NCBI GenBank assembly: GCA_963668645.2
Contig: CAXXWC010000018.1
Location: 160,001-224,000, forward strand
Length of the DNA stretch: 64,000 nt
Direction: 5' to 3'
Source of the DNA: Desulfobacterales bacterium
GTDB lineage: Bacteria; Desulfobacterota; Desulfobacteria; Desulfobacterales; UBA2174
The notes below the pieces were generated by a model. It worked only from the letters and a program-made list of their open reading frames with translations. It had not been told where the DNA came from and did not search any database. Both the position numbers and the translations under genes were made by a program. Below, in pieces: positions 1 through 32,551 of this stretch. The number at the start of each line of letters is the position of its first letter. The stretch's first letter is position 1.

Positions 1-1690
1 TGTTTGAATTGCTGTCTGTTTCACAATAGTCATACCGATAAATGACAGAATTCCCTTGAATTTGAAATTTTCCATTTTTTGGTGGCATAAAAAATCCGCT
101 ACTCGCCACGGGGTTGCTTAACACTAAAGTAGCGGCTGATCCGGGTGTAATGTTTTGCTGGCTGGAAGGATTTGCGATAACGGTAACGGATGTCCATTCT
201 GGTATTTCTGTGGTAATTGGATTAGACGGCAATAGTGTAAACATGTTACTACTGAAACTTGTATATTGATATTGCTTGGTGATAGTTGTATAAGCAGCTG
301 AGGCATTTGGACGAGTCTGTGTACGAATCTGGAGCTTGCCTGTTGAAGGCACTGAAAATCCATTGGGTGCTGCACCAGGGAATCGTACGTTTAAGGTGGT
401 TGCCCCAACAGCCTGATCTGATGAAGAAACCAGATAAAACGGTATTACTTCTAATTGTATGGCTCCTTCTGTCATATTGAGTGTGCGTCCGTCGAGAGTA
501 TTTGCCATTGCATTTTGGTCATCGTTACGACCATTATTGCTGCTATCCGTTGAATGAAGAAACTGGCTGGCGGCGTAACGGAACCCTGATTCTGCAAGAT
601 AGTAAGAATTCTTAGATACCTTATCGACCGTTTGACGCATGCTTGATGTATCGACCATAGAGAACATTACAACGCCCAATACAGATATAATTAAAATAGA
701 AAAAATTATTCCGATGAGGACGGACCCATGGTCGCTAAAAAATATAGAATTTTTCAGTGATATTCTTTTTGCTGTTTTTGTACCGGATCTTCTGTTTGCT
801 TTCTTAAATCTTATAAAAGCCCAAAAAGAAATAGCTGTTATCAGTAAGACAAGAGGAATGGCTCCTTTTGCATAAATTATTAAAAATGATATTGAAACAA
901 TGGGAAGCAACAAAATTCTTACGATAATTTTTAAACAAGAATTGGTTTCGATTATACCAGAAATACGAGGGCTATAGGTATAGTATAGATTGATAAAACG
1001 TCGGCCTATAGACCAGGTATTAAGATAGCGGTCTCTGAATTGCCTCAATATCACCACCATGGGATGAGAAGAATTCCCATAAGCCGAAGTAGCAATGAAG
1101 CAGGATTGAGTGAAAGCTGGTGGATTATCAGGGGTTGGAATGGGGGCGCCACCAGCGTTTCCGTTGTTTCTAGGATTGACCACTGTGCTAAAAGTAAAAT
1201 TACTTCCCCCTCCTGCATTGCTCATTGATAAATTGATGACAATATGCGATAGATCCCTGATGTCATCAGCGGCGGGATTCCAATTATTACTACTTTTTTT
1301 ATAATCGAAGCTTAAACCATTGACTTGGTCGACAAGGATGTCGCCGCTACTAAAAGAAGGATTCGAACCAGCCGTACCGGTTGCGATCAAAATCTCAGAA
1401 TTCCCATTGCCGCCAAGACCTATCGATGTCGCTCCGGAAACCTTGTCGAACGTTATTGAAGTGGTTGCGGCATTTGATGTCGGGGAAGGGATCGAATGAA
1501 GATCGATTAATTCTCTCGTAATCCTTGCTAGTGCAACTTGAGCTTTTCCTGCAACTATGGAATTGTCCTTTACAAAAAGGTAGCCTTCAACAAAAGAGAC
1601 TATTCCAAGGCCTGCAACAGCAGAAACAATACCGACTAAAATAAGGGTTATAATAATCTCAAATAGTGTAAAACCGCTTTGTTTTTTCAT
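1..1690 (-). CDS. Partial (>=563 aa, runs off left edge) minor-pilin fusion: PilW-like prepilin + CFI-box-CTERM/TM domain + PilX-like pilin
   Basis: Manually translated, no stop from ATG 1690 to base 1; AGGAG RBS upstream. N-term MKKQSG|FTLFEIIITL; internal CFIATSAYG...LRQFRDRYL...GRRFINLYYTYSP; hydrophobic stretch and basic linker; then DHG|SVLIGIIFSILIISVLG...SYYLAESGFRYA. Absent from the ORF track. Confidence 0.85.
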   Translation of the reverse strand, partial: MKKQSGFTLFEIIITLILVGIVSAVAGLGIVSFVEGYLFVKDNSIVAGKAQVALARITRELIDLHSIPSPTSNAATTSITFDKVSGATSIGLGGNGNSEILIATGTAGSNPSFSSGDILVDQVNGLSFDYKKSSNNWNPAADDIRDLSHIVINLSMSNAGGGSNFTFSTVVNPRNNGNAGGAPIPTPDNPPAFTQSCFIATSAYGNSSHPMVVILRQFRDRYLNTWSIGRRFINLYYTYSPRISGIIETNSCLKIIVRILLLPIVSISFLIIYAKGAIPLVLLITAISFWAFIRFKKANRRSGTKTAKRISLKNSIFFSDHGSVLIGIIFSILIISVLGVVMFSMVDTSSMRQTVDKVSKNSYYLAESGFRYAASQFLHSTDSSNNGRNDDQNAMANTLDGRTLNMTEGAIQLEVIPFYLVSSSDQAVGATTLNVRFPGAAPNGFSVPSTGKLQIRTQTRPNASAAYTTITKQYQYTSFSSNMFTLLPSNPITTEIPEWTSVTVIANPSSQQNITPGSAATLVLSNPVASSGFFMPPKNGKFQIQGNSVIYRYDYCETDSNSN

Positions 1691-1722: not shown

Positions 1723-2190
1723 TCATTCGGTAAAAAAAGCTGTCAATTTCTGTTCGTTTGCAGGATCGGTAATAGTCACTTTAAGAATTTCAGTACCGCT
1801 TGTCTCGTTACAGTTCTTGCCGCTACAGTTGAAAGAGATATACCCATTGTAGCTTAGAGTATACTTTCCATAATCATTATCGTATGAATTGCCCGCTGTG
1901 CCGAGACTGTTTCGAAAAGTATTAAGAGGGTTGGCGTCATCCGTGGAAGCCATTGATTCTTTATAAAATGCGGTCATGTTTTCCATTACTTCACTTAAAT
2001 CATAAGTGTTTCTGACACGAATTAAATTCATGGAGCTTTGGGAAAGGCTATTTTTCATGAAAACAGTTAGTATCGTACCAAATATAGCGATCAATACCAA
2101 AGAAACAATCACTTCGATTAAAGTAAAAGCCCGGCTTTCAAAATTATTTTTCAGTTTAAAGATTTTGTTTGTAAAATTAGAACCAATCAT
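1723..2190 (-). CDS. Type IV minor pilin (PilV/MshD-like)
   Basis: Prepilin motif RA|FTLIEVIVSLVL; in operon with other pilins. Confidence 0.85.
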   Translation of the reverse strand: MIGSNFTNKIFKLKNNFESRAFTLIEVIVSLVLIAIFGTILTVFMKNSLSQSSMNLIRVRNTYDLSEVMENMTAFYKESMASTDDANPLNTFRNSLGTAGNSYDNDYGKYTLSYNGYISFNCSGKNCNETSGTEILKVTITDPANEQKLTAFFTE

Positions 2191-2222: not shown

Positions 2223-2678
2223 TTAAGGAATAAATCCTGTATTACGAGTAATTGTAATGTTTCCACCGTTAGTCGCGACAACGATTGTCGTTGCGCCAGG
2301 ACTTCCATATTCGTCAAACGTTACACGGTTTCCAGTTGGTGGTGATATTGTCAAACCTGAATTTTTTGCAGTCAGGTCAACCGTTGAAGAAGACTCTCCG
2401 GGAATGATGACATGGGTTGTAGAACCTGTTCCCTGAAACAAATAGTAAGAGGTCGTGTTGAAATATATACCCCATGCGTTGTCGGTATTGATGGCTTTTA
2501 TCTGCGCGTAACGCAAATGATTCTTTACGGTTTCAACCTGGGAAGGTAGATAGAACTGATCAACGTTAGGCATACGAGAGAGCGCTATTGCGCTTAAAAT
2601 GCCAAGGATCAACAGCACAGCCACGACCTCGATAATAGTAAAACCGGCATAATGCCCGGTACGTTTTTCGTTTCTCAT
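2223..2678 (-). CDS. Type IV minor pilin (FimT/MshC-like)
   Basis: AG|FTIIEVVAVLLILGILSAIA; HLRYAQIKA; C-terminal VTFDEYGSP...ITRNTGFIP. Confidence 0.85.
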   Translation of the reverse strand: MRNEKRTGHYAGFTIIEVVAVLLILGILSAIALSRMPNVDQFYLPSQVETVKNHLRYAQIKAINTDNAWGIYFNTTSYYLFQGTGSTTHVIIPGESSSTVDLTAKNSGLTISPPTGNRVTFDEYGSPGATTIVVATNGGNITITRNTGFIP

Positions 2679-3241: not shown

Positions 3242-3640
3242 ATGCTGAGAAAAGACATAAAGAAGGCCCAAGGCGGTTTCACCTTGATTGAAATTATTGC
3301 GGTGTTGGTTATTCTGGGGATTTTGGCGGCGGTGGCCATTCCGAGGTTTATCGACTTGCAGGCGGATGCTAAGGATAAAGCACTTGATGGTGCCTGCGCG
3401 GCATATGCCTCAAATATCAACCTGCAATTTTCCAAACAGTTGCTGAATGGTAGCAATGTCAGCAATTCTCTAACTGAAGCTTTTACCGCTGCACCAACAG
3501 ATTTGGGTGATTTTAATGCAAGTGGTGCAACAGCCCCAGCACCAACAGAGGAAACCTATACATTTACCGTTGCACATGAGACAGATACAGATTGGAACAA
3601 ATCGTGTACAGCTCCAAATCCTGGTTATGCCGGTAGCTGA
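3242..3640 (+). CDS. Type IV major pilin, MshA/PilA-like
   Basis: QGG|FTLIEIIAVLVILGILAAVAIPRFIDLQ; strong RBS; own promoter and terminator. Confidence 0.88.
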   Translation: MLRKDIKKAQGGFTLIEIIAVLVILGILAAVAIPRFIDLQADAKDKALDGACAAYASNINLQFSKQLLNGSNVSNSLTEAFTAAPTDLGDFNASGATAPAPTEETYTFTVAHETDTDWNKSCTAPNPGYAGS

Positions 3641-3770: not shown

Positions 3771-5885
3771 TTACTTTGATCTCGAAAGAGCTTCAATCTC
3801 TAATCTTAGCCCTTCACAGATAGTATGCCTTAAACTATTGTTGTAAACAACCTCACCATTTTGCTCCAAATTGGCGATACGGTTTTTAATATTCCGGAAA
3901 CCAATCCTTTTTTTCAGAAGCAAAAGATCGATCACCGACTTGCGTAATGATAAATCATCACTCATTACATTGGCCAATCGTATTAAAGCCAATAAGGGTT
4001 CGATATCTTCTTGATCGACTTTCTGATATGAGGTCCAATATATTTTTGATAGTCTGTATTCTTTCAGTTTAAAAAAAGATTCTCCCAAGACTTTTAAAGC
4101 CGTTTTTTCATCATTTTTGAGCAGTAGCGTTTTATAAGCCATTTTTATTGCACCGGAATAATTATCTTGCCGAAGTAGTATCAAACTTTTTAACCCTAAT
4201 ATTTTCGGCTCTTCAGGATGCCTATTTATTAGTTCCTCTGCTACTTTGTCTGCTTCATCATACTTTTTTTGTTCAATGTATGCATGTACAAGGTTGAATA
4301 TAGACTTTTCATAAGAAGGATCAATTGATAATGCCCGCTTGTAGAATTCGATGGCTTTTGCGGGCTCCTTCTCTAATAAATAAATATTGCCAAGATTGTT
4401 AAATGGCACTGCTTGTAAATCAAGGCGATCATATCGAGAGATTTCTATATCTTTTAAAAACGAATTTTTGGCCTTTTCAAAAAGTCCCATATCATAATAT
4501 GTTTTGCCCAAGTTTAAATGCACGCGACTTAAATTTGGCGACTTTTCTATATTATCCTGCCAGATATATATCGGGTGTTTAAATAGATAATTTCTTTTTA
4601 TAACCGAATACCCTTGTCCGGCAATGGTTACACAAATTATACAAGCAACAGCTGTCTTGAATATGTTTTTCTTACCGAAATTGTAGTAGAAATTGATAGT
4701 TGCCATGCTCAGTAGTAAAAATATGGTGACAGAAGGCAGGTAATTACGGTGTTCATACATGATTTCCAGGGGTATGAAAGAGCTTTCAATCAGGTTATTT
4801 ATGATAAAGAATAGCATGCAAAAGGAAATAATGCGATTTTTTCTGAACAAAAATAACCCTAATAATACCCATGCTATCCAAAATAGAATGGCCGGCATAG
4901 TACTCCATGGGGTCAGAAGAGAAGTTGATATAGGGACGTCATAAATTAAAGTAAAGCGGTCAGTCATCGGGTAAAGAATAAGAGAGAGATAATTCAGAAG
5001 AACCCGCGGCTCTGTAAGAACCCGCTCTGTTAAGCTGAAACTTCTATAATCATATCCAGACAAAATATCTAAAGGATTTGCCACTAAAAACGAGATTGAA
5101 GCAATTAGCGAAATCAATAATACACCGACTATGAATTTGACTTGAATTCCAGCCGTTTGCATTTTTTTAAAAAACAAAAATTCGTATAATAAAAGAACAA
5201 GGGGTAGTAAGAAGACATTCTCCTTGCTTGCCATCGATGATATCGCAAAAATTGCACCCAATACATAATATGTTGTTCTTTTTAATTTTTGTCTGGCTAT
5301 CCGACCCTGAAGATAAAAAAATATTGTCATGATATAGAACATGCCTGCCATACTGGTCATGCGTTGGACGATGTAAGTCACTGAGGTAACCAGGATAGGA
5401 TGGGTGGCCCAAAGGGCGGTGGCCAGCAAGGCAATGGAACCGGCACGATTGTCGTATTTTCCCCGTAGTATGGGAAGATGGAGTGTTTCGTAGATAAAGA
5501 GGTAGAGAAAAATTGTCGCAATACTGTGAATAATTACATTGACCAGGTGATAGCCCCAGGGACTCAGACCACCAAAATAATAGTTAAGTGCAAAACTGAT
5601 ATAGGATAGTGGTCGGTCGACACGTTTGCCTCCCAAGCCGCACGCCGCATCTTTAATCCCCTCCCAATCGAGAACCTTCATATGAATACGGGGATTGGCG
5701 ACGATATTTTGTTCGTCATCGAAGATCCAGGTCCCATTGAAACTGTTGGCATAAATTATCCAGATCAGCGCCAAGATCAGCAGCAAGGGAACGGCGTGAG
5801 CGCGCCAACACAGAGTCTGGTCCGGGGTGCAGCAGGCTTCGGAGGGCATTTTATTGGTTGCGGCTGGTAAATAAGCGTCATTCAT
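3771..5885 (-). CDS. TMTC-family GT-C membrane glycosyltransferase with C-terminal TPRs
   Basis: WIFDD, RPLSYISFALNY, HLVNVIIH, HP...VTYIVQR, SKE, EHRNYLP motifs plus TPRs; start uncertain (5885 ATG or 5942 TTG). Confidence 0.85.
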   Translation of the reverse strand: MNDAYLPAATNKMPSEACCTPDQTLCWRAHAVPLLLILALIWIIYANSFNGTWIFDDEQNIVANPRIHMKVLDWEGIKDAACGLGGKRVDRPLSYISFALNYYFGGLSPWGYHLVNVIIHSIATIFLYLFIYETLHLPILRGKYDNRAGSIALLATALWATHPILVTSVTYIVQRMTSMAGMFYIMTIFFYLQGRIARQKLKRTTYYVLGAIFAISSMASKENVFLLPLVLLLYEFLFFKKMQTAGIQVKFIVGVLLISLIASISFLVANPLDILSGYDYRSFSLTERVLTEPRVLLNYLSLILYPMTDRFTLIYDVPISTSLLTPWSTMPAILFWIAWVLLGLFLFRKNRIISFCMLFFIINNLIESSFIPLEIMYEHRNYLPSVTIFLLLSMATINFYYNFGKKNIFKTAVACIICVTIAGQGYSVIKRNYLFKHPIYIWQDNIEKSPNLSRVHLNLGKTYYDMGLFEKAKNSFLKDIEISRYDRLDLQAVPFNNLGNIYLLEKEPAKAIEFYKRALSIDPSYEKSIFNLVHAYIEQKKYDEADKVAEELINRHPEEPKILGLKSLILLRQDNYSGAIKMAYKTLLLKNDEKTALKVLGESFFKLKEYRLSKIYWTSYQKVDQEDIEPLLALIRLANVMSDDLSLRKSVIDLLLLKKRIGFRNIKNRIANLEQNGEVVYNNSLRHTICEGLRLEIEALSRSK

Positions 5886-6811
5886 GGAAATCCCCCGGTG
5901 TCTGTGAAAGTTGATTTCGTCTTTTTTCGAAAAAATTTTCAAGGATGGAAGCCATGTCCCGCATCATCTGCGCTGTAGGCTGCCAGCCTCGGCAATGTCA
6001 AGACATGAACCGCCTCTTTACGTTTAGGTGAACATCGCATGCATTTGCCTCCTGCACCCCTTTTATAGAGTATCTCGGTTCATGCGACAACTATCCCGGC
6101 ACGGGGAAAGAGCGAGCGTCCCGGCCGTTTAATAGCGTTCATCGCGCAGATCCCGGATCACCATTGCACTGGATGACGATTTGCACCGTGCACTCAAGGA
6201 GACGGCCGCTCGGCAGGGGCGCAGCATCGGCCAGATCATCGAAGAGAGCCTTGGTGCTCGGTCATCTCACCCACCACTTCGGCCGAACACTTCAAGAAAC
6301 GGTGATGACGCGGTTTCAACTTGATACCTGGCCTTGTGGGATCGGTTTTTAACCGCGATAAGGCATAGTGGGCGGACGCTCGGTCGCGGATAACTTCCGC
6401 TCCTGTCAGGAATACACCTTTACATGCTTTTGCTCTCCGCGTCTCAGCGTCTCCGCGCGAAACCGGCAGTTTTCCGCCCTTTTCCCGCCTTTTGGATCAA
6501 CTTCAGATTCCTCGATGCAGGCTTTTCGGAATGATCCGGGGAAGGGATGGCTGAGTCTCTCCGTGTGAGGCACCTCTACAGGACTGCGCGCCTCCGCGCG
6601 AGGCCGTCCTTTTTCAGACGTTTCCCAGCTTGATTGCGCGGTATTTTCCCATGTGGTAAAGAAACCTCCGGACGGTGCGCCGGTTTTCACCTTCATCGAT
6701 GTACAAGCGGCGCCTTGCCCTATTGCGATAGTGAGCCTCGCGGCCGGTGGCTGCCGCCGGTGGCGTTCGGAATCATGAACCGATCCGGGAAAGCGGAATT
6801 TCAGACAGATC

Positions 6812-22084: not shown

Positions 22085-23830
22085 TCAACGCTGGGTGACG
22101 CGCAGTACCTCGGCCAGGGCCGTCACCCCGTCGAGCACCTTGGCGATCCCGTCCCGGCGCAGGGTGATCAGACCGTCGGCTATGGCCTGGGCCTTGATCT
22201 GGTTGGCATCGAAAGTCTGGAGCAGCAGCGATTTCATCGCCGCGGTCATCTCGAGGATTTCGAAAATCGCGATGCGCCCCTTATATCCGGTCTGGAAGCA
22301 GTGGGGGCAGCCCAGGGGGCGGTAAAAAACCTGGCCGTTCAGGCGGGCCGGGTCGATGTCGAGTTGGCGCATGGCTTCCGGCGCGGGGCGGTAGGATTGC
22401 CGGCACTGGGGGCAGAGCTGGCGCACCAGGCGCTGGGCGATCACGGCCAGGACCGCCGAGGAGATCAGAAAGGGTTCGACGCCGATGTCCACCAGGCGGG
22501 TCATGGCCCCGGCCGAGTCGTTGGTGTGGAGGGTGGAAAAGACCATGTGGCCGGTCAAGGCGCTCTGAACGGCGATGTCGGCCGTTTCGCGGTCGCGGAT
22601 TTCGCCCACCAGGATGACGTCCGGGTCCTGGCGCACGATGGAGCGCAACCCCCGGGCAAAGGTCAGATCGATTTTGGGATTGACCTGGATCTGGCTGATT
22701 CCGGCGATCTGGTATTCCACCGGATCTTCGATGGTGATGATGTTGATCTCCGGGGTCCTGATCGACTGGAGCACGGCGTAGAGGGTGGTGGTCTTGCCGC
22801 TGCCGGTGGGCCCGGTGACCAGGAGTATCCCGTTGGGCGAAGCGATCAGCTCTTGCAGCTGCTCCAGACGCTGGTCCGAGAGCCCCAGTTCGGAAAGACC
22901 GATGAGCGACTTGGACTTGTTGAGCAGCCGCAGCACCACCCGTTCGCCGAAGGTGGTGGGCAGCGTCGAGACGCGCACGTCGATTTCCTGATTGCCGATT
23001 TTGATCTCGATGCGCCCATCCTGGGGCAGGCGCCGTTCGGCGATGTTCAAACGGGCCATGACCTTGATGCGCGAGATCAGTGAGGCATGGATCCAGCGCG
23101 GCGGGCTGAGCATGTCGTAGAGGATCCCGTCGATGCGGTAGCGCACCTTGAGCTGGTCCTGGTAGGCCTCGATGTGGATGTCGCTGGCCCCGGCTTTGAC
23201 CGAGCGGGAGATGATATGGTTGACGAGCTTGATGATCGGCGCCTCGCTGGCGTCTTCGAGCAGATCCGGGGCGTCTTGCAGCTCGTGGATGACGATCTGC
23301 CCGTCTTCTTCCATGTCCTGCACGAGCTGTTCGGCGCTGTCCGGGGAAAACTCGTAGCAGATGTTGATGGCCGACAGGATCGTGGGGCCGGGGGCCACCA
23401 CGATGTGGTAGGCCGAGATTGCCAGCCGGCGGACCAGCTCGTCGATGGGCTGAAACTGGCCCGGGTCCTTGACGGCGATGACCCAGTCCATGTCCCGGGC
23501 TCCGTCCAGGGGCGGGGAGAAGGCGGCGGCCTTGAGCGGCACCATGATATGGTATTTGAGAAACTGGATCGGCACCCGGCGGGCGACTTCCTCGTCGATT
23601 TCACCAGGGGCCAGTTCGGCGTAAAACGGCAGATCGTAGTACCGTGCCAGGGCCTCCTGGAACTGGTTTTCCGAAAGCAGTTTGCGCCCGGCCAGAATCC
23701 TGGAGACGGGTTCGCCCTTTTCGGCCGCCGCCGCGCCCGCCTCGGCAAGGGCCTCGGGGTTCAGGCCGAAGTCCTCGCTGAGGATCCGCGCCATCCCGGC
23801 GGGCAGGGTGGTGATGGGATCAGCGTTCAT
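22085..23830 (-). CDS. gspE: T2SS ATPase GspE
   Basis: ASDIHIE, RLPQDGR, GPTGSGKTTT, RQDPDVILVGEIRD, CxxC zinc motifs. Confidence 0.95.
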   Translation of the reverse strand: MNADPITTLPAGMARILSEDFGLNPEALAEAGAAAAEKGEPVSRILAGRKLLSENQFQEALARYYDLPFYAELAPGEIDEEVARRVPIQFLKYHIMVPLKAAAFSPPLDGARDMDWVIAVKDPGQFQPIDELVRRLAISAYHIVVAPGPTILSAINICYEFSPDSAEQLVQDMEEDGQIVIHELQDAPDLLEDASEAPIIKLVNHIISRSVKAGASDIHIEAYQDQLKVRYRIDGILYDMLSPPRWIHASLISRIKVMARLNIAERRLPQDGRIEIKIGNQEIDVRVSTLPTTFGERVVLRLLNKSKSLIGLSELGLSDQRLEQLQELIASPNGILLVTGPTGSGKTTTLYAVLQSIRTPEINIITIEDPVEYQIAGISQIQVNPKIDLTFARGLRSIVRQDPDVILVGEIRDRETADIAVQSALTGHMVFSTLHTNDSAGAMTRLVDIGVEPFLISSAVLAVIAQRLVRQLCPQCRQSYRPAPEAMRQLDIDPARLNGQVFYRPLGCPHCFQTGYKGRIAIFEILEMTAAMKSLLLQTFDANQIKAQAIADGLITLRRDGIAKVLDGVTALAEVLRVTQR

Positions 23831-25817
23831 TTTGCTGGCCCTGGGGCCCTGGATAGAGCCGGATGCTGTCGCTGGCAGCCGGAGGGAGCGGGGCTGCCCC
23901 GGTCTGCCCGGAACCGATGGGCGATTTCTGGCCAAGCGGACTTTCCGCCTCGATGCGGTCGATTATCGCCTTTTTGCGTGCGTAGACCCCGTCGGCCTCG
24001 CCGGGGCTGCGGATCACCCGGGGGGTGATGAACACGAACAGGTTGGTCTTTTCATTGCCGCGGCCCCGGGTCTTGAAGAGCCACCCCAGGACCGGGATGT
24101 CGCCCAGCAGCGGCACCTTCTTTTCCGTCAGGGATGTGTTTTCGTCGATCAGGCCGCCAATCACCACCGTCTGCCCGTCGTTGACGATGACGCTGGTCTC
24201 GATGGAGCGTTTGAGCGTGGTGGGCCGGTAATCGACGTTGGATTCCAGCTTGGTGACCTCCTGGGAGATATCCAGGCGTACCAGGCGTTCCTGGTTGATG
24301 CGCGGGGTGATCTTCAAGGTGGTGCCCACGTCCTTGTATTCGTACGAGCTGTAGTCGATGTTGGTGGTCGAGGTGGTTTCCTGGCGGGTCTGGAACGGCA
24401 CGTTCTTGCCGATGTAGATCGTGGCCTCCTGGTTGTCGGTGGTCAGGATCTGGGGGGTCGAGAGGATATGGACATCCTTGTCCTGCTTGTAGGCCTCGAT
24501 CATGGCCCCTATGCTCGGGAAGGTCTGGCCGCCGACGGTGAGCGTCTCGCCGAAGATGCCGAAGGCGCCGCTGGCGTCCAGGCTGGTCAGGTCGGTGGCA
24601 TCCGGACTGCCGAATCCGCCGCCGAAGGCTGATGATTTGCCGTCGATGTCGGTCTTGCCGAAGGCGCTCCATTTCACGCCCAGGCTGAAGTCCTTGTTGA
24701 CGTTGACTTCCATGATCAGACATTCGATGTAGACCATGGAGCGGGGGATATCGAGCTTGGCGATGATCTGTTCGATCACCTCGTAGTCTTCCTTGGCGGC
24801 GATGATGATCAGGCTGTTGGTGGCCGGGTCGGCCGTGATCTGGATCTCGCCCGAGAGGGCCGGCGCCTCGGCGGCCTTGCCCTGGGGTGTTTTTTTCTCC
24901 TCCTTGACCGGCACATCCTTGAGCACCTTGGCCAGGTCTTCGGCCACGGCGTTTTCCAGGTAGTAAACCCGGATTTTGCCCTGGCCGCGGGGCGTTTCCC
25001 GGTCCAGCAGGCCGATCAGGTCCCGCAACCGCTTGATCTCGTCCTCCTTGGCCAGCACGATCAGGCTGTTGGTCCGTTCGTCCGAGACCACTTGAACCGG
25101 ACTGGCGGCCGCCGATCCTTTCTGGGCTTTGGCTGCCGGGGGATTGAAGACCGCCGAGGCGATCTTTTCCATCTTTACCGCCTCGGCGTATTTGAGTTCG
25201 ATGACGGCGATCTCCATTCCGACCCCGGTGATATCGATGGCCTTGATGATGCGCATCAGCCGCTGGATATTGGACTGGACGTCGGTCAGAATCAGCATGC
25301 CGGTGGGCGCGTAGGCCAGCAGTACACTGTTTTTGGAGACCAGCGGCGCCAGCAGCTTGCGCACCTCTTCGGGCTCGGCGTACGCCAGGGGCACGATCTG
25401 GGTCACCACCCGGTCGGCGACGGTGCCGGTTTCCTCGTAAAGGCGGGTCTCGATGCTTTTGCCCCGGGCTTCGGGCGCCGGTACGATCTTGGTCACCGTG
25501 CCGGAGGGAACCGTTGTGAAACCGTGCACTTCGAGAACCGACTCGAACACCTTGAACGCCTCGTCCACCGAGATGCGCGACGGCGAGATCACCGTAACCT
25601 TGCCGCGGACCCGTTCGTCGACGATGAAGTTGCGTCCGGTCAACTCGCTGATAAATTTGACGAAGACCGCGATGTCGACGTTGTTGAAGTCGATGCTGAC
25701 AAAGCGGCCTTTGCCCGCCGGCGGATTCTGATCCGCGGCGGCGGCCGTCGCCGGACAAAAGGACAAAGCGAGGCAAAGTCCCACCAGAAACACTCGGATG
25801 GCCATGCGTGGCAGCAT
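23820..25817 (-). CDS. gspD: T2SS secretin GspD
   Basis: IDFNNVDI N0 domain, N repeats (DERTNSL), ILSTPQI, KVPLLGDIPVLGWLF. Confidence 0.95.
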   Translation of the reverse strand: MLPRMAIRVFLVGLCLALSFCPATAAAADQNPPAGKGRFVSIDFNNVDIAVFVKFISELTGRNFIVDERVRGKVTVISPSRISVDEAFKVFESVLEVHGFTTVPSGTVTKIVPAPEARGKSIETRLYEETGTVADRVVTQIVPLAYAEPEEVRKLLAPLVSKNSVLLAYAPTGMLILTDVQSNIQRLMRIIKAIDITGVGMEIAVIELKYAEAVKMEKIASAVFNPPAAKAQKGSAAASPVQVVSDERTNSLIVLAKEDEIKRLRDLIGLLDRETPRGQGKIRVYYLENAVAEDLAKVLKDVPVKEEKKTPQGKAAEAPALSGEIQITADPATNSLIIIAAKEDYEVIEQIIAKLDIPRSMVYIECLIMEVNVNKDFSLGVKWSAFGKTDIDGKSSAFGGGFGSPDATDLTSLDASGAFGIFGETLTVGGQTFPSIGAMIEAYKQDKDVHILSTPQILTTDNQEATIYIGKNVPFQTRQETTSTTNIDYSSYEYKDVGTTLKITPRINQERLVRLDISQEVTKLESNVDYRPTTLKRSIETSVIVNDGQTVVIGGLIDENTSLTEKKVPLLGDIPVLGWLFKTRGRGNEKTNLFVFITPRVIRSPGEADGVYARKKAIIDRIEAESPLGQKSPIGSGQTGAAPLPPAASDSIRLYPGPQGQQNER

Positions 25818-25834
25818 CGGTTGATAGGTTCCTT

Positions 25835-26362
25835 TCAAAGCTCGAAGGTTTCCACCTGAAGAACGGCCTCGATCCATTTTTCCTCTTTGCCGGTCTGGGT
25901 GATGCTCAGGCGCTTGACCGTGATCGCCTCGGCGGCGGTTTCCACCCTGTGCAAGAAGGCGACCAGCTCGGGCAGGCTCACGTCCTGGATCTTCATCTCC
26001 ACCCGCGACAGGCGATAGGGGGTATCCTTGATCGGATCGGCCGAGGGCTTCATATAGGCGATACGATCCTTGAGCTGGGTCTGGCCGGCGGCGCCGTCAA
26101 GAAACGAAAAGAGGGTGAAGCCCGCCTGGCGCCGGCCGAGGCGCTGCTGCTGGGTTTGGGCCTCGGCCTGGAGCTGGTCGTACTGCGCTTTGAGGCGGTG
26201 CATCTGCTCCAGGGCGACCGTTTCGGCCGCCAGGGTGCGGTCGATGCGCCGGACCCTGGCCGCCAGCGGCGAAATCACCAGTTCGATCAATGCCACCGCC
26301 AGCAGGACCAGGGCCGCGGCTGTAATGCCGATCCTTTCACGGCGGTTCAGTTGGATGGCCAT
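25835..26362 (-). CDS. gspM: T2SS protein GspM
   Basis: LNRRER + TM + coiled coil; follows gspL. Confidence 0.85.
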   Translation of the reverse strand: MAIQLNRRERIGITAAALVLLAVALIELVISPLAARVRRIDRTLAAETVALEQMHRLKAQYDQLQAEAQTQQQRLGRRQAGFTLFSFLDGAAGQTQLKDRIAYMKPSADPIKDTPYRLSRVEMKIQDVSLPELVAFLHRVETAAEAITVKRLSITQTGKEEKWIEAVLQVETFEL

Positions 26363-27837
26363 GGGACCACCTCCAATCGGCCGATGTTGAGGGTAAAGCG
26401 CACCCTGTTGCTGCGGTTGTCGATGTTGGCCGCGGCAATGGTCACTTCCCGGAACATCGGATTTTTTTCCAAGCGCGTCTTGACCTCGTCCACCGCGTTG
26501 AAGGTGGCGGTATGCCCGGTGAGGGTCAGATTGTCCGGACCGATCACCAGCCGGGTGATCTCCACATCCAGCCCGGCTGGAATTTCCCTGCTCAGTGCGG
26601 CCAGGATGTCGATGGCCCGGGGCCGGGCCCCCTCACTGCCCGGGATCTTGGTGGTGCTTTCCAGCTCCTTGATGACGGCGCGCATCTGGCTGACCGGATC
26701 GACCACCCGCGTGGCGTCCGGCCGGGTAGCCCGGAAAAGGGCGGTGGTTTCCCGGGTGATCGCCTCGATACGCCGCTGCTTGAGATAGACCCCGTGGGCC
26801 AGTTGGGCCGCGCCGAGCACCAAAACCACGGCTGCCAGGACGGCCGTGCGCTGGAACTGCCTGCGGTGGCGGGTCCAGAATTTTTTTACGGCAAAGTCAC
26901 CCTGGCGCAGGTTGAAGCCGGTATCGGCGCGGCGGGCAGCCAACGCCAGGGCCAGGGCCCCGTTCATTGCTCCCGGTTCCCAGTCGCGCAGGGCCTTGGC
27001 CGTAAGATGGCCGCTGCGGCTCAAATCGACTCGCTCGACCGCCAGATCGAGGCGCTCGGTGGCCAGGGCTTCGAAGGCTTCGCTGTAAGGCCCGTAGCCG
27101 GTCAGCCGGAGTTGCCCGGGGCGAAACGGGTTCCCGTCCGCATCGGCCAAGGCCCGGCAGGTCTGCTGGAGCATGCTGATCAGTGTTTGACGGCCCGCTT
27201 CGGTATGCAGGGGGGCGCAGATGTCGCGCACGGCGAGCAGCCGGCCGTCGGCCACCGGCACCAGCGTGGCCCCATGGGGCCGCAGGGCCGCGGCGATAAA
27301 CCGCTCGGCTCCGCCCTGTCCGTTCATCAGGCACAGCGCCGGGCAGATCCCGTCCGCCGTGACCCACTCCGGATCGAGTCGTAGCGCGCCCAGGGATTCC
27401 AGCAGGCCGGCCAACCGGCTCTTTTCAATGGCGGCGGCCAGAATCCGCGGCGGCGGCCCGCTGTCCAAACGCCGGTGGTCGAAGACCATTTCGTCGGCCG
27501 CGGCCACCAGGGACGGTTCCAGTTCGAAGGGCAGAACCTGGCGCAGCTTGCGGTCATCATCGAAAGGGGCCGTCAGCGGGCGGAAGATGAATTGTCCCGC
27601 AGGCAGGGCCACCGCGCAGGTTGCGGTCAAAGCGGCATCATGGGCCCCCACCGGTCCCAGAACGGCCGCCAGGGATTCGGCCTCCGTGTCCTGGGCGGAG
27701 CGCTCCACCCGGTGGGCCGCAACGATCTGCGCTTCGCCCCGCTGGATCTGGCAAAGGACGGCGCTGGCGGTCTCGGGGCCGATCTCGATGCCGAGGAACG
27801 ATTTTTTCAGGACGGTTGCCACATCAATATCCTGCAT
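26347..27837 (-). CDS. gspL: T2SS protein GspL
   Basis: LGIEIG actin-like domain, LPFELE, FNLRQGDF, TM, PilN-like C-terminus. Confidence 0.88.
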   Translation of the reverse strand: MQDIDVATVLKKSFLGIEIGPETASAVLCQIQRGEAQIVAAHRVERSAQDTEAESLAAVLGPVGAHDAALTATCAVALPAGQFIFRPLTAPFDDDRKLRQVLPFELEPSLVAAADEMVFDHRRLDSGPPPRILAAAIEKSRLAGLLESLGALRLDPEWVTADGICPALCLMNGQGGAERFIAAALRPHGATLVPVADGRLLAVRDICAPLHTEAGRQTLISMLQQTCRALADADGNPFRPGQLRLTGYGPYSEAFEALATERLDLAVERVDLSRSGHLTAKALRDWEPGAMNGALALALAARRADTGFNLRQGDFAVKKFWTRHRRQFQRTAVLAAVVLVLGAAQLAHGVYLKQRRIEAITRETTALFRATRPDATRVVDPVSQMRAVIKELESTTKIPGSEGARPRAIDILAALSREIPAGLDVEITRLVIGPDNLTLTGHTATFNAVDEVKTRLEKNPMFREVTIAAANIDNRSNRVRFTLNIGRLEVVPWPSN

Positions 27838-28889
27838 ACGGTTTTGCCGCTGGCCGCATCGCTTTGGCGCAGGACCACGGCCGTCAGGGCCGCGCGCGCG
27901 CCGCTGTATTCGGCCACGGCCTGGATACGGAAATGATCACTGGCCGTGGTGATCAACTCGGCTTCGATGGTCAGCTCCTGGCACCCCGGCGCGTTGCGGT
28001 ACCAGAGCGGATCGGCCAGCAGGTCGGAAGTGTCGTTGGCGATCACTTCCTGGCGAAATTCCAGGATGGACTGGGCCAGATCCTCATATTCCTCGGGCAG
28101 CAGGGCCGCCAGCAGGGGCAGGGGGGCCGTGTTGATGTTGATCCGGCCGTCGTAGGCGGCCTGGTCCCCGCGCACTTCGTTCATCCCGTAAACCGTCAAC
28201 AAAGGGCCGATGCCCGGTTGTTGCCCGTCGCCGTCGATCAGGCCGGGGATAATGCCGCGCACCAGACGCAATTCCTCCACTTCGGGCACGGGGCCATTGC
28301 GGCAGGTGTAAGGCACTGGCAAAGACGCATAGTAGGGAGCCTCGGCGCCTCCCAGGCCGGTGACGGCGTCGTCGTCACCGCGGTCGAGCCAGTCCTTGAC
28401 GGCGGCCACGATCATTCCGGGGGTGGTGTCCGGCGTGCGCAGATCGTCAAAGGCCGGCAGGGACAACAGCCGCTCCCAGAGACGCTGCTGGGCCGCAACC
28501 ACCTGCTGGCCCTGGGGAAAGTCGACCAGGGCGTTGACCTGAAGGCGGGCCCTCGCGTCGTCGATGCGCAGCGCTAAGCCGATCCCCTCGGGAGCACCGG
28601 CAGCGGCCAGGGCGGTGATCTTTTCCGTATCGGCCCACAACTCGGCCAGGCTGTCGGCCCGGCTGGTGCGCTTGTCCTCGACCAGGACCGCCATGGCGGT
28701 ATGCACGGCACCCTCGGCCGCCGCCGCCGCCACGGCATGCGCCGCCTGGCGCTGGCCCTCATCCAGGGCTTGGCGCACCTTGAGGTGGATGGCCAGCGCA
28801 ACGGAGACCAGTACCACGGTCACCGCCAGGGCCACGAGCAGGGCGGTGCCGCGTTCAGCCCCGGCGGCCTTGAAGGCCCGGCCGGCCAT
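27807..28889 (-). CDS. gspK: T2SS minor pseudopilin GspK
   Basis: ERG|TALLVAL, DWLDRGDD, RININTAP. Confidence 0.92.
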   Translation of the reverse strand: MAGRAFKAAGAERGTALLVALAVTVVLVSVALAIHLKVRQALDEGQRQAAHAVAAAAAEGAVHTAMAVLVEDKRTSRADSLAELWADTEKITALAAAGAPEGIGLALRIDDARARLQVNALVDFPQGQQVVAAQQRLWERLLSLPAFDDLRTPDTTPGMIVAAVKDWLDRGDDDAVTGLGGAEAPYYASLPVPYTCRNGPVPEVEELRLVRGIIPGLIDGDGQQPGIGPLLTVYGMNEVRGDQAAYDGRININTAPLPLLAALLPEEYEDLAQSILEFRQEVIANDTSDLLADPLWYRNAPGCQELTIEAELITTASDHFRIQAVAEYSGARAALTAVVLRQSDAASGKTVCRILMWQPS

Positions 28890-29620
28890 CAGCGGCGCGC
28901 CTCCCGCACCACCGCCGGTGCGATTCGGGGCCGGTAGATCCTGCCGACCCCCTCTTCACCGACCTCGATCATCAATTCCACGGCCCGGGGGGTGGCCCAG
29001 TGCCACTTTTCGTCGTCCGAGTCCCACTCCTCGTGCGTATCGCCCTGGTCGTCGACAAATGTCCAGCGCAGGCGCAGAACATTTTCGCAGACTATGGCGG
29101 CGGGTACCGGCAGGTCCGGGTCGGCCTGTAGATCGAAAACATCGGTGCGCATTAGCACAAATCGATCATTCATGCGACGGACAAAATAGCTCACCCGCGC
29201 CAGAGCCCCCGGGGCGATCTGCAAGGCCGAGGGGGCCAGGGGGCGGTGGGCGCGGGCGGCAAACTCCAGGCGCTTGAAATCGGACGGATCTTCGGGTCCG
29301 GCGTAACACCGGAACCGGTAGGGATCTGGGTCTTTGCCCATCTCCGGCGGCCGGTAAACCGGGGTTGCCGTGATATGAAGCGCCCCCAGGTCGGCCTCGA
29401 TCCATTGGATCGCCTCGGCAGCGGCACCGGCCGCTCCCAAGGTTTGTTCGATGCGCGCAGCGGTGCGGTTGACCGCCGAAAGCGCGCTCAAGGCGGTAAG
29501 CAGCACGATGCCTAGTATGGCCACGGCGACCAGAATCTCCAGCAGGGTAAAACCGCTGGTAAATATCCGGCCCCTACGAAGGCGCCAGCCGCTGGGTGCG
29601 CAGGTGAAATACACGTTCAT
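28889..29620 (-). CDS. gspJ: T2SS minor pseudopilin GspJ
   Basis: SG|FTLLEILVA; C-terminal PRAVEL. Confidence 0.88.
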   Translation of the reverse strand: MNVYFTCAPSGWRLRRGRIFTSGFTLLEILVAVAILGIVLLTALSALSAVNRTAARIEQTLGAAGAAAEAIQWIEADLGALHITATPVYRPPEMGKDPDPYRFRCYAGPEDPSDFKRLEFAARAHRPLAPSALQIAPGALARVSYFVRRMNDRFVLMRTDVFDLQADPDLPVPAAIVCENVLRLRWTFVDDQGDTHEEWDSDDEKWHWATPRAVELMIEVGEEGVGRIYRPRIAPAVVREARR

Positions 29621-30026
29621 CCTGGTTCAGATCGATTCGGATGTCGATAAGGTAAAGACTCCGGGCCGTTTCTCCCAGAAGTTCGTCGTCCCGTGCCCTT
29701 GCCGTGATCTGCCAACCGTAGCCCAAGGCGTCTTCGCCGAAATCTCCCCGCTCATCGAGGTCTTTGTCCAGGCCGCGGGAATCGACGGTGGCCAGCACGG
29801 CCTGGGCCAGCATGGCGGCACGGCTGTTGAAATCCAGACGTTCGACAACACCCAGATTCCCGGCCTGCATGCGAAACACACTGACCAGCACCACCGCCAG
29901 CACCGCCAGGGCAACGACGACTTCCATGAGGGTAAAGCCCCTGACCGAAGGGCCGGCCGGCCGAAACGCGCGCCGCGGGGATCTGGTGCACGGTGCCGCG
30001 CATCTACCGTTGAAGATCGGTTCCAT
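29574..30026 (-). CDS. gspI: T2SS minor pseudopilin GspI
   Basis: RG|FTLMEVVVALAVLA. Confidence 0.88.
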   Translation of the reverse strand: MEPIFNGRCAAPCTRSPRRAFRPAGPSVRGFTLMEVVVALAVLAVVLVSVFRMQAGNLGVVERLDFNSRAAMLAQAVLATVDSRGLDKDLDERGDFGEDALGYGWQITARARDDELLGETARSLYLIDIRIDLNQDERVFHLRTQRLAPS

Positions 30027-30633
30027 CTTCTCTGATTACCCGTGCCGCGGCAAGAAACGGTTCGATGCGCAAGGTCAACCGGCGCCCGCCGAGTTCGGCC
30101 ATATCGATGTCGACCATGAAGCTGTGGCCGTCGGGGAAATATTGCACCGCGTAACTGCCGGTATTGATTTCACGCTCATCGGGCAGGCGCAATTGTTCGA
30201 GGCGCACCCGGCTCGGCAGGCGGTATCCTTCGTCTGCCGCGGCCGCCATTTGATCCTCGTCCATGGACGCATCGGAAACCCAGATGCGCTGCCGATCGAG
30301 ATCCAGATGCATGCTGTAGCGCAATTGCCGGCCGGCGGCTTCGGCCTTGAGCTTCCGGTGGGCCTGGATCACCTGGCGGGCCGCGGCCGAAAGATCGTCA
30401 TGCAGCCCGGGCAGATCGATGCGCGGTACGGTGAGCACCAGCACCGTGCCGATGACGGCCACCACGACCATCAGTTCGAGGAGGGTAAAGCCGGCTCCGG
30501 AGCGGTAGCGGCGGCCCCGGCCGCTTCGGGTTGGCCAAGGCTGGCGATCCGCATCTGGATGCGGCCTGCACGGCCGGTTGCGGGGCGAGCACGGATGGCC
30601 CGAGCCCCGGCGATCAGATAGCTGTCCTGGCAT
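30004..30633 (-). CDS. gspH: T2SS minor pseudopilin GspH
   Basis: AG|FTLLELMVVV; FPDG; start uncertain. Confidence 0.85.
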   Translation of the reverse strand: MPGQLSDRRGSGHPCSPRNRPCRPHPDADRQPWPTRSGRGRRYRSGAGFTLLELMVVVAVIGTVLVLTVPRIDLPGLHDDLSAAARQVIQAHRKLKAEAAGRQLRYSMHLDLDRQRIWVSDASMDEDQMAAAADEGYRLPSRVRLEQLRLPDEREINTGSYAVQYFPDGHSFMVDIDMAELGGRRLTLRIEPFLAAARVIREDGTDLQR

Positions 30634-30654
30634 GGCCCGCTGGTAACCTTTGTA

Positions 30655-31113
30655 TCACTCGATTTCCCAGTTGTTGATGTCTTTGTCCTTGCCCTCACCG
30701 CCGGCAACACCGTCCGCGCCGTACGAGGTGATATCGAAATCTCCGTGGTTGCCCGGGCTCAGATAGACGAACTCGTTGCCCCAGGGATCTTTGGGAACCT
30801 GGTTTTTTTCAAGATATCCGCCCTCTTTCCAGCGTTTGGGAATCTGGCCGCTCTGGGGTATCTGCACCAGGGCCGCCAGGCCCTGCTCGGTGGACGGATA
30901 AAATCCGTTGTCGAGCCGGAAGAGCTTGATGGCCGTCTCCAGGCTGGCGATGTCCATGCGCGCCTTGACCTGCTTGGCCTCGTCCGGGCGGCCCATAATC
31001 TTGGGGGCCACATAGAGCGCCAGGATTCCCAGGATGACGATCACCACCATCAGCTCGATCAGGGTAAAGCCCTGCGGGCTGCTTCTGAAACGCCATGAAC
31101 GTTTCTGGTTCAT
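30655..31113 (-). CDS. gspG: T2SS major pseudopilin GspG
   Basis: [36 protein letters not shown]. Confidence 0.96.
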
Positions 31114-31321
31114 GCTTTTGACTCCTTGAAATTCCATTTAAGCGTTGAAATTTCTCCGCACTCGTTCCGTATCGCGGTTCAAGATCCCCGCCCGGTCCGG
31201 TGCCGCATTCTCCGGCGGCGCTCAACACAACGTTGCCAACCGCGCTCGGCCGGCGGTGGCGCAACCTGGATCGCGGGACCAGCCCCTTCTCTCTTCCAGG
31301 GGCCGTTACTGCCCCTGAAGT

Positions 31322-32551
31322 TTACCGTATAAGCTGATTCATTTCGAAGATCGGCAAACAAACCGCCAGCACGACGAAGGCCACCGCCGCACCCATGATC
31401 AGGATCATGAGCGGTTCGAGCAAAGCGGTCAAGGCGCTGATGGTCGATTCCACCTCATTGTCATACATGTCGGCGATTTTCCCCAGCATCGGTTCGAGCC
31501 TGCCGCTTTGCTCGCCGACATCGATCATCTGGATGGCCAGCGGCGGAAAAGCCCGTGGGGTGGCCGCCAGTGCCCGGGACAGCGATTTGCCCTGGCCCAC
31601 ATCGCGGCTTGCGTCCTGCAACGCCTCGGCCACGATGGTGTTGCCGGCGATATTGCGCACGATTTCCAGGGCCGCGAGCATGGCCACGCCGTTTTCCAGC
31701 AGGGAGCCGAAGGTACGCATGATGCGGGCCACATTCAGCCGCTGGACCAAAGAACCGACCAGTGGGATTTTCAGGATCGTGCGGTCCGTGGCCAGCCGGC
31801 CCCGAGCGGTGCGCCGAACGGTGCGCAGGACCTGGAAGAGCGCCGCCAGGCCCAGCGGCAGGCTCCACCAGTAGGTGCGCATCCAATGGCTGAAACCGAG
31901 CAGCAAGCGGGTGGGCAGGGGCAGCACCTGCTTGACCTCGGCAAAGATTCCGGAAATGGTCGGCACGATGTAGGTGAGCAAAAAGATGAGGACTGCCGAT
32001 CCGATCACCAGCATCAGGACCGGATAGGTCATCGCATTGCGGATGCGGGCCCGCACGGCCTGCTGTTTCTCGGTGACGTCGGCCAGCCGTTCGAGAACGA
32101 TTTCCAGGGTTCCCGATGCTTCGCCGGAACGTACCATGTTGACATAGACCGGTGGGAAGGTGTCGCCGGCGCGGCCCAGGGCGTCTGCGAAGCTGCTGCC
32201 GCCCACCACGGCGTCCTTAATCTGAGTGAGCTTTTTTTGCAGCCCGGCCGACGGGGTCTGGGGGATCAGCGCGTCCAGGGCCTGCACCAGGGGAAAACCC
32301 GCCCCCAGCAGGGTGGCGAGCTGGCGTGTGACCAGGGAGACCTCCGCCGGCTTGACCCGATTGCCCATCAGGCGCTGGCGTATTGCCCCCTGCTCCGGAC
32401 CCGCGGCAGCGGCGGTGACCTCCTTGAGGCTTACCGGATAGATCCCCCCGGCGCGCAGCCGACTGCGCGCCCCGGCCAGCCCGTCGGCGTCCAGAACCCC
32501 GCTGACCTTCCTGCCTCGTCGATCAAGAGCGCTGTATTCGAATACCGACAT
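31322..32551 (-). CDS. gspF: T2SS inner-membrane platform GspF
   Basis: TRQLATLL, GEASGTL, GEQSGRL, LLEPLMI. Confidence 0.95.
   Translation of the reverse strand: MSVFEYSALDRRGRKVSGVLDADGLAGARSRLRAGGIYPVSLKEVTAAAAGPEQGAIRQRLMGNRVKPAEVSLVTRQLATLLGAGFPLVQALDALIPQTPSAGLQKKLTQIKDAVVGGSSFADALGRAGDTFPPVYVNMVRSGEASGTLEIVLERLADVTEKQQAVRARIRNAMTYPVLMLVIGSAVLIFLLTYIVPTISGIFAEVKQVLPLPTRLLLGFSHWMRTYWWSLPLGLAALFQVLRTVRRTARGRLATDRTILKIPLVGSLVQRLNVARIMRTFGSLLENGVAMLAALEIVRNIAGNTIVAEALQDASRDVGQGKSLSRALAATPRAFPPLAIQMIDVGEQSGRLEPMLGKIADMYDNEVESTISALTALLEPLMILIMGAAVAFVVLAVCLPIFEMNQLIR

Follow-up and report, generated by a model that had tools for sequence, protein, structure and literature searches.

A GspJ/PilW-like and a GspK/PilX-like pilin fused through an internal CFI-box in a Desulfobacterales bacterium, a candidate pilin polyprotein

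At one edge of the stretch of DNA analysed here (the window, 64,000 nucleotides of contig CAXXWC010000018.1 from the Desulfobacterales assembly GCA_963668645.2), a single minus-strand frame appears to encode a PilW-like pilin, a CFI-box-CTERM domain and a PilX-like pilin in a row, as an earlier note made from the sequence alone had pointed out. This raises the question of whether such a gene is real and, if so, how two pilin subunits (J and K in the following) could be obtained from one chain. The parts of the gene and of the pilin cassette around it are as follows:

2..1690, minus strand: fused pilin gene, 5' 563 of 1164 codons, an open frame that runs on to C18:158196
1670..1690, minus strand: leader and first class III site QSG|F with Glu5 (PF07963 and TIGR02532 above cut-off)
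1166..1672, minus strand: pilin 1 (J), GspJ/PilW-like, residues 7-175 (helix 9-62 and sheet; 5bw0_A alignment)
1103..1165, minus strand: Gly/Pro-rich spacer, residues 176-196 (low pLDDT at 178-196)
896..1102, minus strand: full CFI-box-CTERM domain, residues 197-265, with the invariant Cys197-Phe198 (NF041770, 84.4 bits)
797..940, minus strand: two predicted hydrophobic helices, residues 251-273 and 277-298, probably with one net crossing
728..808, minus strand: basic linker, residues 295-321, CTERM tail and putative leader of pilin 2 (charge; lowest conservation)
722..727, minus strand: internal class III site G322|S323, no Glu5 (Gly in 120 of 120)
2..724, minus strand: N-terminal part of pilin 2 (K), GspK/PilX-like, residues 323 on (helix 323-379; 3ci0_K match)
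outside the window, minus strand: lectin-fold region of pilin 2, residues 621-1148 (jelly-roll matches)
1723..2190, minus strand: upstream minor pilin in the GspI/PilV position (N-methyl motif; gene order kept in relatives)
2223..2678, minus strand: upstream minor pilin, GspH/FimU-like (PF12019 and TIGR01708 weak, below cut-off; gene order kept)
3242..3640, plus strand: probable major pilin, divergently transcribed (N-methyl motif)

The frame contains no stop from the ATG at 1690 to the window edge, with a further in-frame ATG upstream at 1726, and it is absent from the list of open reading frames because it is open-ended in the window; in the genome it extends past the window edge and encodes 1164 residues. 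The landmarks lie where the earlier note had placed them, with G6|F7 at 1675-1670, C197 at 1102, G322|S323 at 727-722 and YYLAESG from 604, and the N-terminal prepilin site is matched by the N-methyl motif over residues 1-26. Assembled contigs from three runs of one sample cover positions 1-2300 without a break or gap, although 31 differences are present, and none of the contigs carries at the junction the stop or indel that, according to the note, would have separated the parts. These contigs come from a second strain in which the frame is likewise open; the 19 listed substitutions inside it lead to 11 amino-acid changes and no stop. One database protein from one contig, P0163, is this gene frameshifted near residue 104, upstream of the junction, through either an assembly error or an allele. 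The pilin cassette forms a low-GC island (∼0.40 vs ∼0.59), and a scan for its promoters and terminators stayed at chance level.

Homologs were collected with residues 1-420 of the fused protein, a query that favours fused forms. It matched 177 proteins, the best 120 of which are 756-1379 residues long and nearly all span most of the region; at least 120 homologs, all among the matches listed, are fused and repeat the three-part architecture. Their sources include Syntrophales, Smithellaceae and Syntrophobacteraceae, their median identity over residues 1-420 is 43%, and the frame is open through the junction in proteins down to 33% identity. Homologs are not always separate genes, the outcome that would have spoken against the note: the 20 loci fetched among 60 relatives comprise 8 fused ones, 10 split into adjacent genes and 2 truncated by a contig end (three further weak matches to J were left out of this count), and in a 400-genome sample of the phylum 41 genomes match the J profile, with 8 fused cases, one of them shared with the 60-relative set. 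At the 17 fused loci for which we have DNA, this gene included, a C[FM][ILV] motif always lies between both pilins. The fused architecture is a conserved family and not an artefact. An assembly error, or a recent loss of a stop codon in one strain, might have been suspected from the frameshift in P0163 and from the many split orthologs (10 of the 20 fetched loci), but it is refuted by the fused homologs, by the 17 fused loci from several families and by the second strain.

In a quick tree of 79 J domains the fused forms cluster more than shuffled labels do; with 35 of its 75 inner forks open, this tree is compatible with one origin of the fusion or with several. Scanning genome contigs for the J domain left 80 loci, 3 of which are strong full-length relatives and the others mainly leader matches. 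Read-through of selenocysteine or stop codons was considered for the long frames of two genomes, G019 and G051, and rejected, as both are ordinary split genes, interrupted by several stops of different kinds. In G019, a short tandem repeat of ∼21 bases is found between the split J and K genes (L039:7219-7332), and in another genome, G044, the K part of the fused gene contains a frameshift together with a short duplication, probably an assembly fault (L033:1341-1522).

Profile matches and fold comparisons support the reading of the parts as pilin, CFI-box and pilin. Pilin 1 combines a J-type fold with a gene position between I and K, as expected for GspJ/PilW; structural comparison places its residues 40-177 on chain 5bw0_A from the XcpV-XcpW complex (Z 11.3, rmsd 2.9, 123 aligned), which we take as XcpW (GspJ) because of its length. 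Pilin 2 resembles GspK/PilX in that it has no Glu5, carries a large insert in its pilin core and is the last of the set. Its residues 323-622, folded alone (pLDDT 91), have GspK 3ci0_K as their best pilin match (Z 8.5, rmsd 2.9, 92 aligned), at middling Z values that are tied with those of ComZ (8.0) and S. sanguinis PilA (7.7), and in the same model the insert resembles phage tail domains. PilX_N/GspK sequence models have no match in the fused protein or in 26 homologs, and atlas scores are all below 0.8, with GspK/PilX leading at 0.77. The C-terminal residues 621-1148 match ConA/laminin-G-like jelly rolls, whereas Foldseek returned only generic β-rich matches for both models. A toxin reading of this region was rejected, as the neurotoxin binding domains that appear among the generic jelly-roll matches (Z ≤8.9, 10-17% identity) rank below a phage protein and tie with a sialidase. 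In a complex prediction of J, I and K, a control scored too close for the result to count either way.

The two genes upstream encode further minor pilins in H-I order, and this order is conserved in relatives. There, the pilin cassette adjoins orthologs of the PilQ/PilB/PilC/PilT cluster found on another contig of this genome, C8 (50-65% identity for PilB and PilC), and it is this C8-type cluster, not the type II secretion type of the window, that lies beside it. The C8 cluster (L232:3932-16080) is a pilin-less type IV pilus machine with PilQ, a PilB with c-di-GMP motif, PilC, PilM and a PilT-like protein, in which a sigma-54 activator is also encoded; it is the likely user of this cassette. 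The type II secretion cluster of the window (22088-32551, minus strand) has its own GspD, GspE, GspF, GspK and pseudopilins. Two other neighbours are 1) a 723-residue multi-pass membrane protein with C-terminal TPRs (3771-5942, minus strand), beside the cassette in 5 of 23 related loci, which has profile matches to TPR only and whose layout presumably recalls that of TMTC-type glycosyltransferases, and 2) a UbiA-family prenyltransferase whose gene follows the fused one directly (L001:14296-15153, minus strand), with a homolog nearby in 1 of 23 related loci, whose tie to a modification of the CFI cysteine would be speculation.

The CFI-box is complete, as the note had read it: NF041770 (CFI_box_CTERM) covers residues 197-265 with its whole model, at 84.4 bits for a cut-off of 40, and Cys197-Phe198 is invariant in the 120 listed homologs. 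With 870 residues after it, it is internal in the fused protein, while it is C-terminal in the unfused homolog P0127. The AlphaFold2 model (120 rows, mean pLDDT 82) opens with a long helix (9-62) and a sheet. After a loose spacer come the CFI module, which is helical (199-249), and helices 251-273 and 277-298; beyond these the linker is disordered, and another long helix (323-379) leads into a large β region. The Cys-Phe of the box presumably resembles that of Hint/intein domains; self-cleavage of this kind was set aside, as the box is predicted to be all-helical. No fixed disulfide partner for C197 is seen, there being one other Cys column only, in 12 of 33 representatives.

A hydrophobic segment precedes the linker in 120 of 120 homologs, as the note had noticed, but where it had seen a single stretch there are two helices: proteins of the full-box class have a hydrophobic span of 38-51 residues. 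Both helices are of marginal hydrophobicity (median ∼+1.5 kcal/mol each), and the first has an Arg/Lys conserved in 26 of 30 proteins and a Pro in 30 of 30. Fused variants with a short CFI motif have one helix and the same internal site. This bears on the note's proposal that the segment returns the chain to the cytoplasm. The basic linker, with a net charge of at least +2 in 117 of 120 homologs, supports a cytoplasmic leader for the second site; one net crossing by the CFI helices is what we infer, because with two crossings the basic linker would end up outside and the lectin region would lie inside, and the short variants and the charge argue for the same count in the full box, although two marginal helices leave its parity unproven.

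The internal prepilin-type site recognised in the note is among the most conserved points of the protein. The alignment of 120 proteins has 11 invariant columns, G322 among them: each of the 120 rows carries Gly there, as do 33 of 33 representatives at 70% identity. The Gly of site 1 is found in all 118 rows that reach that position, and the internal Gly recurs in 22 of 22 stand-alone K genes. All four Gly codons are in use at the internal site across the 17 fused loci. Its flanks are variable: positions -4 to -15 mostly drift, and the linker, which varies widely in length, is the least conserved segment (0.16 vs 0.66 for the pilin 2 helix). Position -2 is K/R in 110 of 120 and +5 is never Glu, so that the pattern at -3/-2/-1 (Q, K/R, G) resembles the N-terminal site; this gene has a His at -2, found in 2 of 120. 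Site 1 has a hydrophilic leader ending in Gly, a hydrophobic tract and Glu5. Site 2 shares with prepilins the Gly, the ∼21 hydrophobic residues and the long helix that follow, but at residue 322 it is not an N-terminal signal with a short soluble leader. Known leaders are soluble and 6-30 residues long (PMC4471445, in part); they end in Gly or Ala, with Gly as the critical residue, and are cut on the cytoplasmic side, after which pilins are extracted from the membrane (PMC10191384 and PMC4471445, both in part).

Could K instead be made from an internal translation start, the fusion being a read-through of little function? Two fused loci, L040 and L085, do have an ATG with a Shine-Dalgarno match 4-6 codons ahead of the site, and a Met is present in the linker of 28 of 120 homologs. 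The remaining 15 of the 17 fused loci have no such start, and this gene, in whose linker the note had already found no in-frame ATG, has neither ATG nor GTG nor TTG in residues 262-322, where only ATA and CTG codons occur in an A/T-rich context. When a start codon with a 4-base Shine-Dalgarno match was required within 40 codons, 2 of 17 fused loci qualified and 16 of 22 split ones; as the loci are kin, these counts are not independent. Together with the frame remaining open at 33% identity, this makes an internal start improbable. Little weight, too, falls to a cut at G6 only, which would leave one polytopic J-K unit with G322 in a structural role: a Gly may cap a helix, and PilJ of C. difficile is a dual-fold pilin kept as one chain (PMC4471445, in part), but in the least conserved and length-variable linker it is the Gly at the prepilin register alone that is fixed, and an uncut K helix should not be extractable from the membrane (by extension from PMC10191384, in part).

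We consider a prepilin peptidase cut at G322 likely, given the invariant Gly amid drifting flanks, the basic linker, the scarcity of starts, the unfused intermediates described below and the gene for a two-domain prepilin peptidase in this genome. Counted against this cut and the maturation scheme around it are that cleavage of a membrane-tethered leader, so far a prediction, lies outside the known soluble leaders, the His at -2, the marginal helices of the full box, the lack of an enzyme that tracks it and the two fused loci with a plausible start.

In the maturation that we propose, the gene product would be the common precursor from which the tip complex of a type IVa pilus receives its J and K subunits. 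The chain would make three net crossings (pilin helix 1 from inside to outside, the CFI helices back and pilin helix 2 out again), prepilin peptidase would cut after G6 and G322, both at the cytoplasmic face, and the basic tail of the sorting signal would also serve as the leader of the second pilin. Here the note's reading of two pilins released by prepilin peptidase falls short, as it lacks a second cut: the cut at G322 would free K only, and J would stay anchored by its C-terminal helices. An event on the periplasmic side, at or just after Cys197, would remove the CFI membrane segment so that J can leave the membrane, with its Cys possibly modified. Once G322 is cut, this second cut is likely, and the full scheme of a J-K polyprotein cut at G322 and again at the CFI-box is the one towards which we lean, albeit not strongly; the two subunits would then be produced 1:1, presumably for the C8 machine.

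The second cut can be judged against unfused J pilins. Among 48 short J homologs, 44 are without CFI, 3 have at their end a CFI tail that lacks the helix, and one, P0127, has the full box. P0128, P0130, P0133 and two loci are J with a short CFI tail, likewise unfused, and P0127, whose J is 58% identical to the one here, continues through full box, helices and basic tail to a stop, so that fusion from such a form requires only the loss of that stop. Judged by this natural series, the Cys motif seems to belong to J in its own right, and a tailed J may have preceded the fusion. It also bears on the possibility that only G6 and G322 are cut and J keeps box and helices, as an inner-membrane scaffold or extracted with its anchor. 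A lasting folded module of this kind would be in line with the fixed spacing between C197 and G322 (114-116 residues in 100 of 120) and the conservation of the box (0.62 in the 120-row alignment), no sorting enzyme tracks the full box, and uncleaved MYXO-CTERM proteins are partly extractable (PMC11980579, in part). Yet homologous J pilins have no tail or a helix-less one, which indicates that J can do without the anchor, with the Cys motif retained, and the tip subunit of an extending pilus should not remain tethered. We therefore regard a permanently anchored J as unlikely, and cutting at both G322 and the box as the better account.

Comparison with known systems shows where this gene departs from them. 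It shares with the HIJK tip complex (GspJ-GspK, PilW-PilX; 3CI0, 5BW0) the H-I-J-K order, the J and K folds and a K without Glu5, the subunit that caps the tip (PMC9934059, in part), but here J and K form one polypeptide through CFI-box and membrane helices, and K, at ∼840 residues, contains inserted β domains and a lectin-like fold. PilC of S. sanguinis likewise presents at the tip a ConA-like lectin module grafted onto a pilin, but in contrast to K it has Glu5 and its own N-terminal leader (PMC9934059, in part), and C. difficile PilJ also has two pilin folds in one gene, but as one dual-fold pilin for which the source, in the part available, names no internal leader or cut (PMC4471445). The match to NF041770 is full-length, with the hydrophobic helices and basic cluster expected after it; the box is internal here, however, and its basic tail runs into a prepilin site. 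A bacterial membrane polyprotein with an internal signal sequence is known in the cytochrome b-c1 precursor FbcH of Bradyrhizobium, an unrelated protein that signal peptidase I cleaves at the periplasmic face.

No pilin of this fused arrangement is described, and no paper on the term CFI-box-CTERM was found, in the literature searched, which lay mostly outside subscription journals and excluded supplements. The pilin precursor is probably matured by internal cutting, which is not known as a maturation route of pili. Both the definition of class III signals and the searches for them presuppose an N-terminal position. Should an internal one be kept across the phylum, prepilin peptidase would accept a membrane-tethered leader, and N-terminal predictors would miss real pilins. 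The fused pilin would also offer a direct test of the unstudied CFI-box: the protein should work only with a box that brings the chain back into the cytoplasm and, probably, is itself removed, and piliation would thus be a read-out of CFI processing.

The closest parallel to CFI processing is MYXO-CTERM, whose Cys-bearing signals are cut by CPBP proteases (PMC11980579, in part). Like the box, the signals recognised by the myxosortase MrtX combine an invariant Cys, a membrane helix and a basic tail, and the internal tag of MXAN_5598, which arose by gene fusion and is proposed to be processed, recalls the fused pilin; the CFI motif differs, adds a 50-residue helical insert and has as its downstream partner a pilin that needs prepilin peptidase (PMC11980579, in part). 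The available parts of the myxosortase prediction paper (10.1101/2023.06.07.544157) do not mention CFI, although the supplements of the two myxosortase papers may list CFI-type tags.

A CPBP protease adjacent to a membrane/HEAT protein in 13 of 16 loci is a fair candidate for the enzyme of short CFI tails. Within the 60 relatives the protease is present in 31, a GGGCF[IV] pattern in 36 and both in 24. Thirty loci were taken as first matches and 6 of them, with fewer than 100 open codons upstream, dropped as chance; the 24 kept comprise 16 short tails and no full box in protease-positive genomes, against 6 full boxes and 2 short tails in protease-negative ones. Fusions follow the same division, with the protease in 7 of 7 genomes with short-CFI fusions and 4 of 9 with full-box fusions, as well as in 7 of 15 relatives with a full box and in none of 5 further full-box fused genomes (in a search that ran without a positive control). 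As the protease does not track full boxes, we do not tie it to this gene. The Mrt family models match none of the four CPBP proteins of this genome. One segment of the membrane/HEAT partner resembles the CFI-box in its helical portion (hhalign probability 70, E 4e-5, 33 columns). A wider scheme, which we put forward tentatively and consider doubtful, would have two membrane proteases act on opposite faces of the inner membrane, prepilin peptidase at the internal class III site and a so far undescribed CFI sorting system that would both modify and cut at the Cys, leaving a lipid-bearing J at the tip; protease and helical-module partner would serve short tails in trans, and the full box would carry the module in cis.

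Three other proteins of this genome end in GGGG-CFI, a helix and a basic tail, and NF041763 (short CFI motif) has no match in the genome despite these visible tails. They are 1) a 727-residue exported protein in the window (47883-50063, plus strand), with a TIG/choice-of-anchor Z repeat and the end GGGGK-CFI, helix and tail, to which the CFI models have no match, 2) a 1617-residue exported protein on contig C18 with a short CFI tail and no NCBIfam match (L170:2687-7537), and 3) a 4281-residue surface protein on contig C10 with a short CFI tail, which is followed by a 500-residue membrane/HEAT protein and a CPBP protease (L169:1712-16698).
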